Shown piece after piece: positions 18,784 through 21,077 of a stretch of 64,000 nt of DNA. The translations under genes were made by a program, and so were the position numbers. The notes beneath the pieces are model-generated. The model did not search any database. It saw nothing but the letters and a program-made list of their open reading frames with translations, and was not told where the DNA came from. Location of the stretch: positions 2,784,001-2,848,000 of the forward strand of contig OY761556.1 of the NCBI GenBank assembly GCA_963664705.1. Direction: 5' to 3'. This stretch comes from Acidobacteriota bacterium. Lineage in GTDB: Bacteria > Acidobacteriota > UBA6911. How positions within the stretch are numbered: the first letter of the stretch is position 1; every line of letters begins with the position of its first letter.

Positions 18784-19476
18784 TTACTGAATGACGTCCT
18801 CCACATCAAATCGTCCCCGCCGGACGCTCCCTTCCCTTTCAAAGCTGTCGATCCAGCCCCGGACGCGGCCTTTTCCATAGGTTTCCTCAAAGGCTGTCAC
18901 GATCCGGTCCACCGGGATGTCTGTGAAACTGCCCAGAAATTCAATATATTCCATGAATTTCCGGTTCTCTGAATTGAACAGCTGGAAGATGGAGTCTTCG
19001 CGGCCATTGAACTCGAGCGGCTCGACATGATGCCGTCGGCACAATTCGATATTGAACGCGGGAGTCGACTTCACCCACTTCCCTTCCAAAAAGAATTCGA
19101 CAAACGCATGGTAAGCAAAAATATCGCTCCCCATGTACTCAATCAACTGACGCGTGGCCAGGTGATTTCTTACATTCGCAAAGCCGGGCCTGGTGGGAAT
19201 GCCCATCGCTCTCCCGGCAGCACAGAGCAAGGATGCTTTCGGTATGCAGAAACCTCTCCCGATCTTCAGCACATGGCTCGCGCGGTAGTGTTCCGGCCGG
19301 TAGAACGGCACATACGGGTCATACCAGATTCCATCCCTGACCGCATAATAGAGGCGCACCGCCTTTTCTGTGTCAGTCATGGCATCGACGCATATTCTCT
19401 CGGCGAATTGTCGGATTTCGGGATGATTGCAGTCAATAATTTCCGTCGGTTTGAGATACAGATCTGTGTTTTCCAT
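18784..19476 (-). CDS. Transglutaminase-like cysteine protease family protein
   Basis: VRDGIWYDPY, GFCIPKA (Cys), VRNHL, YHAFVE..LEGKWVK.TPAF. Start taken at MENTDL. Confidence 0.88.
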   Translation of the reverse strand: MENTDLYLKPTEIIDCNHPEIRQFAERICVDAMTDTEKAVRLYYAVRDGIWYDPYVPFYRPEHYRASHVLKIGRGFCIPKASLLCAAGRAMGIPTRPGFANVRNHLATRQLIEYMGSDIFAYHAFVEFFLEGKWVKSTPAFNIELCRRHHVEPLEFNGREDSIFQLFNSENRKFMEYIEFLGSFTDIPVDRIVTAFEETYGKGRVRGWIDSFEREGSVRRGRFDVEDVIQ

Positions 19477-19525: not shown

Positions 19526-19556
19526 TTGACCTGTCTAAAGCTTCACAGTTTACAGT
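19526..19556 (+). promoter_or_regulatory. MerR-type promoter with 19-bp spacer and internal dyad
   Basis: TTGACC (19526-31), 19 nt, TACAGT (19551-56). Dyad CTGT-N10-ACAG spans the spacer. Lies directly upstream of the merR-like gene. Confidence 0.75.
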
Positions 19557-19607
19557 TCTCTTTGCCCGCTGTTTTCGGGAATAATGAGTTCGAAAGGTTG
19601 AGATCCT

Positions 19608-20138
19608 ATGATGAAAACCATTTCCGCCCTGGCCCGGGAATCTGGATTGTCCCGCAGTACGCTTCTCTACTACGACAGACTGGGTTTACTGAAACCGCAT
19701 GGCAGAAGTCACGCCGGGTACCGGTTCTACTCGTCAACAGAGGTGGAACGGTTAGGCCAGATCTGCGCATTCCGGCAGATGGGCATCCCACTTAAGGAAA
19801 TGAAGAGACTGCTCGACAGGTCGGTCGGAAATGCATCCGCCCTGATTCTGAGGCGCAGGCTGCGGGTTCTTGATCGGGAAATCTCAAATTTGCGAAGACA
19901 GCAGCATTGCATCCTGGAGCTATTGAAACAAAAACAACTAAGACAAGGAGTTGAAATGATTACCAAAGAACGCTGGGTAGCGATCATGCGTGCTGCCGGA
20001 CTTAACGATGAAGATATGCATAACTGGCATATCCACTTTGAGAAGATGGAACCGGACGCACATCAGGAGTTTTTGGAATCGCTGGGAATCCAACCCCCTG
20101 AGATAAACAAAATTCGGGAATGGAGCCGAAATCAGTAA
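19608..20138 (+). CDS. MerR family transcriptional regulator with small C-terminal effector domain
   Basis: TISALARESGLSRSTLLYYDRLGLL...GYRFYS HTH, coiled coil, then a 60-aa C-terminal domain starting MITKERW. Confidence 0.92.
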   Translation: MMKTISALARESGLSRSTLLYYDRLGLLKPHGRSHAGYRFYSSTEVERLGQICAFRQMGIPLKEMKRLLDRSVGNASALILRRRLRVLDREISNLRRQQHCILELLKQKQLRQGVEMITKERWVAIMRAAGLNDEDMHNWHIHFEKMEPDAHQEFLESLGIQPPEINKIREWSRNQ

Positions 20139-20167
20139 TCACTGAACGGGCCAGCCCACACACAAAA

Positions 20168-20220
20168 ATCCAATTCCAGATTTCGGACTACCCATGGGAT
20201 CCGGAATCTGGAATTTGGAT
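20168..20220. repeat. Inverted heptamer-periodic repeat between convergent genes
   Basis: atccaattccagatttcgga / tccggaatctggaatttggat, about 20-bp stem built from TCCAGAT-like units. Confidence 0.7.
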
Positions 20221-20230
20221 CCAGGCATCC

Positions 20231-20938
20231 CTACTTTATAGGCGGAGGTATTTTACTCTTGGGCATAGGCTTCCCCTTCTGCGAGGAACCGTCGGAGTCA
20301 ATAAAGATGTATTTGTTCCTCATATCCGGCGGGACGAGGTCCCGCAAAGAAGTCTCTACGTCCTTGGGAGAATATTGCGCCTCGATAAAAATGAACGGGC
20401 GCGTCACCTTGGTAACCCTGAAAGGACAATGAATAAAATTGGCCGGAATATACACAAGAGAAGGCTTGTTGACGACATGCTTCTCCATTTCAGGCCCCAT
20501 GAAAACTTCGTATTCGGCACCCAGTTCCTGCGGGTGATCGGGATCGGTTCCGAGTGCGACCAGGACTTCCGGATCCCTGTGTTTATGCGGTCCATGCCCC
20601 GCGATTTTTGTGGCGGATTCCCCCATCAGCATGGCGGAAAAAAAGTGACAGCCCTCGATGATGTCGCCATCGCAGAAAACCATGAACATGTTTTTCATGG
20701 CGCCGTATCCAATTTCGTATTCTTCCGGCGTCAATTCCGAGGTGAAATACCGTCGATATTTTGCTTCGCCTGGTTTGGGAGACTGGGCCGCAGGCCTGGG
20801 GGCCGCGATCAATCCTTCATTGGCGTTCAGCACCGTTCGCAGCGCTCCGGCCATGGCAACTCCGGCACTTCCGGCTGCGATCTCTTTCACGAAACCCCTA
20901 CGGGTTGTCTTCGGTTGTGCGATTTTGATGAGACCCAT
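20231..20938 (-). CDS. Cupin-like protein with Tat-type signal peptide
   Basis: AGGAGA SD before ATG 20938. TTRRGFVK followed by an Ala/Gly-rich hydrophobic stretch. HGPHKH...E and YIP...IHCP cupin-like metal motifs. Confidence 0.72.
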   Translation of the reverse strand: MGLIKIAQPKTTRRGFVKEIAAGSAGVAMAGALRTVLNANEGLIAAPRPAAQSPKPGEAKYRRYFTSELTPEEYEIGYGAMKNMFMVFCDGDIIEGCHFFSAMLMGESATKIAGHGPHKHRDPEVLVALGTDPDHPQELGAEYEVFMGPEMEKHVVNKPSLVYIPANFIHCPFRVTKVTRPFIFIEAQYSPKDVETSLRDLVPPDMRNKYIFIDSDGSSQKGKPMPKSKIPPPIK

Positions 20939-21077
20939 GTATGTTCTCCTTGTGTGGATGGCTTTGGAAACATCATAATTCCTCGTCCTTCCGATGTCGA
21001 GATTTCTCACAGGGGGATCGCGGCTGCTTGCAGGCGCTGATGCCGCCGGGACGGCGGCGCTCCTGTGCAAGCCGCGA

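Follow-up and report, generated by a model that had tools for sequence, protein, structure and literature searches.

Organization of the merR locus

Within the window, i.e., the whole 64,000-nucleotide stretch of DNA analyzed here, a merR gene lies behind a MerR-type promoter and is followed by a hairpin and a convergent gene (Table 1). An earlier note on this DNA had proposed that this gene yields two proteins, the second from a strong internal start, and the elements from which it argued (promoter, spacer, dyad, open reading frame, internal Shine-Dalgarno sequence (SD) and ATG, 60-aa product) were all recovered base for base, as were the hairpin and convergent frame downstream. The internal AAGGAG is separated from its in-frame ATG by 5 nt, and its pairing energy of -8.0 kcal/mol, vs. 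-3.8 kcal/mol for either of the main ATGs, agrees with the contrast first noted between a weak main and a strong internal signal. The hairpin, a likely terminator, was left unscored by a simple terminator scan. The convergent gene encodes a protein with a TAT-like signal and without family match, and adjoins merR in six close relatives; the divergent transglutaminase-like gene lies beside merR in eight close relatives too (on the same strand in L001), and no operator faces it.

Table 1. Features of the merR locus, in coordinates of the window.
Feature	Position	Strand	Evidence
Divergent transglutaminase-like gene	18784..19476	-	
MerR-type promoter: -35 TTGACC (19526-19531), 19-nt spacer (19532-19550), -10 TACAGT (19551-19556)	19526..19556	+	sequence
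Predicted operator, imperfect dyad including CTGT (19531-19534) and ACAG (19545-19548)	19529..19550	.	comparison of 152 sites
merR gene, 176-aa long product: HTH, coiled coil, C-terminal domain	19608..20138	+	ORF, Pfam, PDB match
Internal SD, AAGGAG	19945..19950	+	SD energy, conservation in three codon phases
Predicted short product, 60 aa, four helices	19956..20138	+	in-frame ATG (Met117), AlphaFold2, conservation
Hairpin between merR and convergent gene, likely terminator	20160..20225	.	MFE -29.2 kcal/mol
Convergent gene	20231..20943	-	

A promoter and operator shared across three phyla

A promoter spacer of 19-20 bp is described as a signature of MerR regulation (available text of PMC8113463), and at the sequence level the merR promoter has such a spacer, with a dyad inside it. 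Among 40 loci from a scan of GTDB genomes (Acidobacteria, Planctomycetes and Gammaproteobacteria, one of the 40 being an unrelated Bacillus MerR), a TTGACCYGTCTA-type site was found within 200 nt upstream of 32 genes, the window gene among them. A matrix built from those 32 sites detected sites in 38 of these 40 loci (a match at the training sites being built in) and, scanned over both strands of the 6.9-Mb genome at a score of at least 13, returned a single site, the one before merR. By these comparisons, the 19-bp promoter/operator is conserved across three phyla. Across 152 distinct sites, the predicted operator positions in the 31-mer are A4-C6-T9-A12 / T17-A20-G23-T25, the symmetric pairs being complementary in 89% (4-25), 72% (6-23), 75% (9-20) and 91% (12-17) of sites, and the left half (ACCYGTCTA) is much better conserved than the right. 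The CTGT...ACAG dyad previously read here was thus correct in its center but not in its extent, since the family operator is wider, and the suggestion that merR is its own sole local target holds in this genome, with its one operator site, but not in some relatives. AlbA, a self-upregulating MerR protein of albicidin resistance in Klebsiella, is likewise reported to have a 19-bp spacer, with an operator overlapping the 3' end of the -35 element (available text of 10.64898/2026.09.21.753095); its operator motif is ACNCTNACG, vs. ACCYGTCTA here.

The orthologue in Aliivibrio fischeri is transcribed: in three raw-read runs, sense depth rises from below 6 to 28-57 across L025:4959-5060, just past the promoter site (L025:4942-4972), and drops after the stop codon. 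This shows a short transcript over the orthologue, the depth itself not placing the +1; eight molecules end at L025:4957, within the spacer and not at the predicted +1.

A MerR protein with a 60-residue C-terminal domain

The 176-aa protein, for which 1041 homologues were retrieved, combines a MerR HTH (residues 4-71; Pfam MerR_1, E-value 3e-16) with a coiled coil, and scores above cut-off against PF13411 (59.7 bits) and PF00376 (47.6 bits). Its top PDB match is the N-terminal domain of TipA (2vz4, E-value 2e-15), over residues 7-104 only, and the last 60 residues have no Pfam or NCBIfam match. Multidrug regulators (BmrR, EcmrR, BrlR) and metal sensors (MerR, CueR, ZntR) are alike in HTH and 19-20-bp spacer (PMC8113463), but match only the N-terminal ~115 residues, and the protein differs from them in lacking a GyrI-like domain and metal-binding Cys. 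Scores against metal-sensing models (MerR, CueR, ZntR, CadR/PbrR, SoxR) were 22-53 bits vs. cut-offs of 117-168. The label “thiopeptide resistance regulator” attached to relatives at JGI likely stems from the N-terminal match; our literature search found no publication on this MerR subfamily.

AlphaFold2 models the 60-aa domain as four helices (residues 4-13, 18-31, 33-42 and 47-59; pLDDT 97), with W7, G15, M21, W24, H25, F28, E29, P33, H36, F39 and L40 conserved, and a structure comparison gave no clear match. The window domain contains no Cys, and neither do 155 of the 176 homologous domains.

In sequence and size the domain differs from both characterized systems with a similar gene plan. 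Streptomyces lividans TipAL/TipAS (MerR plus PF07739, grouped with Caulobacter SkgA and Bacillus Mta) is alike in its N-terminal HTH and coiled coil, but the TipAS model spans 117 positions vs. the 60 aa found here, and the 60-aa domain, unlike TipAS, is in places encoded by a gene of its own or joined to a methyltransferase. PF07739 gave no match for P0001/P0002 at E ≤ 1, and among relatives only 2 of 49 reached E 0.03, in differing registers and at 15 bits vs. a cut-off of 23.8; HHalign against TipAS returned a probability of 0.5% (with a shallow four-sequence TipAS alignment as template), and the reactive Cys by which TipA-class proteins capture thiopeptides covalently is absent, no Cys being conserved. 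The view that the effector domain is a shortened TipAS was borne out by none of these sequence comparisons, in which the similarity is at noise level. AlbAS is described as a 221-aa ligand-binding product of a second in-frame start, with a 40-Å tunnel and two subdomains (available text of 10.64898/2026.09.21.753095); the 60-aa domain is no tandem two-subdomain unit of about 220 aa, and no sequence or fold match between it and AlbA/AlbAS was reported.

Selection on the internal start

Homologues were classed as type A (merR first behind the promoter), B1 (stand-alone copy of the 60-aa domain upstream) or B2 (another gene upstream). The sample held 176 distinct full-length homologues (98 type A, 22 B1, 37 B2 and 19 unclassified), the added loci comprising 80 from metagenomes, those from 17 of 301 genomes of the same phylum, 50 loci or regions from the 78 of 251 Vibrionaceae genomes with matches, matches in 15 of 401 Gammaproteobacteria, and 3 of 7 plasmid-collection records. 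SD strength was expressed as duplex energy in kcal/mol, and an internal start with SD was called for an ATG or GTG at the domain boundary with an SD of -5.5 or lower.

Aligned at the nucleotide level, the homologues conserve the internal Met and SD at the domain boundary. Start and SD were called in 90 of 98 type A genes (the eight exceptions include L032, L033, L051 and L193) and 4 of 19 unclassified ones, vs. 4 of 59 type B genes (1/22 B1 and 3/37 B2). The internal SD is stronger than that of the main start in 65 of the 90 genes. Many type A loci place their main start 4-14 nt past the -10 box, so that the long form is probably leaderless there; in the window merR this gap is 51 nt and the main start has a weak SD.

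Taken singly, the window gene has an SD no stronger than the coding of RQGVE gives (synonymous recoding, p-value 0.37), and the case for selection thus comes from the family. As a background, 2.2% of 6,762 internal in-frame ATGs in this genome (long ORFs, first 1.5 Mb) reach -8 kcal/mol, and 12.6% of internal ATGs reach -5.5. When the first 127 genes were synonymously recoded, the internal SD of type A genes proved better than expected by a mean of 3.2 kcal/mol, with no excess in type B (+0.3 and +0.5) or at 318 further ATGs in these genes. Measured from the start, the GGA of the SD is 9, 10 or 11 nt upstream in 15, 40 and 26 genes, i.e., in all three frames, and is coded under unlike peptides (QGV, LEQ, RRN). 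Where the start position is Val, the codon is GTG in 14 of 16 type A genes, vs. 33% (155/475) of other Val codons and 2 of 8 start-position Val codons in type B. Finally, the LLEQNM of Vibrionaceae is written TTG/CTG GAG in monocistronic genes and CTT GAA in three genes of EamA operons (L163, L167 and L168, merR following the EamA gene), GGAG being lost there synonymously. The three frames, the GTG at Val and the synonymous loss argue for selection on the RNA rather than the protein. A start codon nevertheless persists at the boundary in 30 of 59 type B genes, many without SD, which suggests that the Met is partly favored by the protein.

As in TipA-class genes, an internal in-frame start is thus found at the effector-domain boundary, and the TipAL/TipAS-like organization first suggested (one gene, an internal start at the end of the coiled coil, its own promoter) is supported, here from sequence alone, by the conserved start and SD. 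Two products are very probably made from this one merR gene.

Stand-alone copies and gene architecture

The 60-aa domain also occurs as 27 distinct stand-alone genes in these loci, consistent with the expectation that such homologues exist. Nineteen lie directly behind the family promoter, the distance from promoter to conserved Trp codon being 94-181 nt, which leaves no room for an HTH; of the other eight, four are at contig edges and four belong to a divergent group without scored site. Most precede a merR without internal SD. In L035, L181 and L182 the stand-alone gene begins at the exact internal-start codon with a like kind of SD, resembling, on sequence, a deletion derivative of type A. 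In one genome (G373), the merR of L184 has no internal start and a stand-alone copy sits elsewhere with a site of its own. The stand-alone copies carry residue changes of their own, and the ESM Atlas holds unnamed clusters of 59-62 aa. Divergent stand-alone copies in L095, L105, L117, L128 and L140 have W7->F, M21->K/R and W24->L, keep H25, P33 and H36, and have no SD.

The trade-off between internal start and architecture is not absolute, as A. fischeri combines an internal start with two other operator sites, and L015, L048 and L026 combine one with a neighboring promoter target. By eye, type B groups nested in type A Gammaproteobacteria (L151 group, L170, L178 group, L171) are without SD, L191 being an exception that keeps it, and L051, a type A gene placed among type B, also lacks one. 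The best tree shows six architecture switches, with two independent pairs on well-supported branches, a number at which a sign test cannot reach significance; with so few independent switches among related homologues, the tree-corrected test is not significant and underpowered.

Other arrangements were seen in passing. In four Vibrionaceae merR genes (L201, L202, L205 and L203, in G410, G429, G439 and G475) the internal SD is lost along with the gene's own promoter, the operator in G410 preceding a distant EamA gene, a hydrolase gene and the methyltransferase fusion instead of merR. The divergent EamA target at L015:3021-4835, which has its own operator, is broken by an insertion sequence. In L034, L039, L111, L124, L169 and L183, frameshifts, either real or assembly errors, lie in merR upstream of an intact C-terminal domain.

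Promoter targets and the nature of the ligand

Behind the family promoter, relatives carry genes for EamA exporters, SRPBCC proteins (Polyketide_cyc2, below cut-off) and a His-rich protein of 130-147 aa, type B relatives thus driving an exporter as multidrug MerR proteins do. The same promoter precedes a 389-aa fusion of MerR, a remnant of the domain with three helices and a SAM methyltransferase of the BT_2972/BVU_3255 type (E-value 3e-32), which retains the W-H-x2-L-[DE]-x3-P-x-A-H pattern and has at least 1,112 relatives in a whole-protein search; the available part of the paper on BT_2972/BVU_3255 gives the substrate as undetermined and does not mention MerR (PMC3225368). Fusion loci (L147:763-1929, L148:1282-2451, L149:1258-2424) are widespread in Vibrionaceae and other marine Gammaproteobacteria, with a GNAT-type gene after the fusion in L149 and apparently also in L244. 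A pattern search of five genomes (four with sites) added GNAT acetyltransferases and an alpha/beta hydrolase. The 130-147-aa protein is a recurring target (L101:87-479, L026:4399-4833, L087, L090, L102, L103, L215, L216) with invariant H26, H29 and H110 and without Pfam, PDB or named Atlas match.

An organic toxin is usually countered by efflux, acetylation, methylation, hydrolysis or binding. The promoter targets therefore point to an organic toxin rather than a metal as ligand, favoring one half of the “toxin or metal” first proposed and disfavoring the other. The 6.9-Mb genome studied here has no operator site at any such target and no close homologue of the EamA, SRPBCC, methyltransferase or 130-aa proteins; together with its single operator site, this leaves the short product as the only candidate output.

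A candidate sensor-and-sponge module

One-gene resistance by sensor plus sponge is documented for TipA and AlbA (available text of PMC11098121, PMC7762955 and 10.64898/2026.09.21.753095), TipA being described as making a long and a short isoform through an in-frame start, the short one in excess, and as activating its own promoter (PMC11098121; PMC7762955). By every sequence test the present locus is like TipA and AlbA, but without their effector domains. Building on a promoter, operator dyad, two in-frame starts, family-wide selection on the internal SD and start, and stand-alone copies, all established by sequence comparison, we propose, with a probability of about two in three, that it is a one-gene, self-inducing detoxification module, in which a 176-aa MerR activator is accompanied by a free protein of 60 aa whose predicted role is to sequester an organic toxin. 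By analogy with MerR biology, a MerR dimer would bind the spacer and untwist its DNA once the C-terminal domain is loaded, giving positive autoregulation. Ribosomes would initiate more often at the internal start than at the weak main one, the short form would thus be in excess, and it would bind the same ligand as the sensor and titrate it. In relatives, the corresponding role behind the promoter would fall to an exporter, acetyltransferase, methyltransferase, hydrolase or SRPBCC protein.

The short product could instead regulate the long form, either as an anti-activator pairing with its C-terminal domains or as a threshold buffer. In MerR proteins, small C-terminal domains frequently exert their effect at the dimer interface and autoinhibition is described for the TipA class (available text of PMC7762955), a 60-aa four-helix monomer may, judging from the model, be too small for a pocket, and the residue changes of stand-alone copies would fit. 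A damping factor would, however, be needed as well where merR follows an EamA, SRPBCC or 130-aa gene, and only 3 of those 37 genes have start and SD; with a single operator site in the genome, a purely regulatory pair would moreover control only itself. We consider this reading unlikely.

More doubtful still is the reading in which His25, Glu29 and His36 of the short domain bind a metal ion or haem as the ligand. Each of the three is found in all 157 classified homologues (for H25 and E29 this follows in part from the search pattern, for H36 it does not), and the motif that contains them is kept in the methyltransferase fusions; yet no Cys is conserved, scores fall far under the cut-offs of the MerR, CueR, ZntR and CadR models, and the promoter targets are GNAT, alpha/beta hydrolase, SRPBCC and EamA proteins, with no metal ATPase, RND pump or reductase behind any site examined. 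That the 60-mer is a small enzyme modifying the toxin rather than holding it would suit its alternation with GNAT, methyltransferase and hydrolase as promoter output, and the invariant His and Glu could be catalytic, but the long form uses these residues in its sensor domain, structure comparison found no enzyme fold, and strong translation signals would rather fit a stoichiometric role, making this very improbable. Equally hard to credit is an ordinary autoregulated MerR making one protein only, its SD-like word and Met by-products of a Glu/Gly/Arg-rich linker: the recoding result for the window gene alone and the 12.6% background would allow it, but not readily the SD in three frames at fixed spacing, the GTG bias, the synonymous loss in operon forms or the three stand-alone genes starting at the very same codon with a like SD.

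Implications

It is tempting to go further and speculate, at what we would call even odds, that the locus represents two-product MerR sensor-sponges of a third family, unrelated in structure, with an uncatalogued 60-residue domain supplied interchangeably by internal initiation or by a duplicated gene, and heading a widespread marine and sediment regulon (efflux, acetylation, methylation, hydrolysis, sequestration) directed against a natural antibiotic. This would add a far smaller, apparently unrelated binding domain to the sensor-sponges of the TipA/AlbA type, in a family that 78 of 251 Vibrionaceae genomes carry, as do 17 of 301 in this phylum. The internal start, with an SD kept in three frames and lost alongside a separate gene, offers a rare comparative demonstration that such a start is functional. 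The conserved promoter is a ready reporter for finding the compound, and a function would follow for several orphan families: the 60-mer, the 130-aa His-rich protein, the SRPBCC subfamily and the BT_2972-like methyltransferase fusions.
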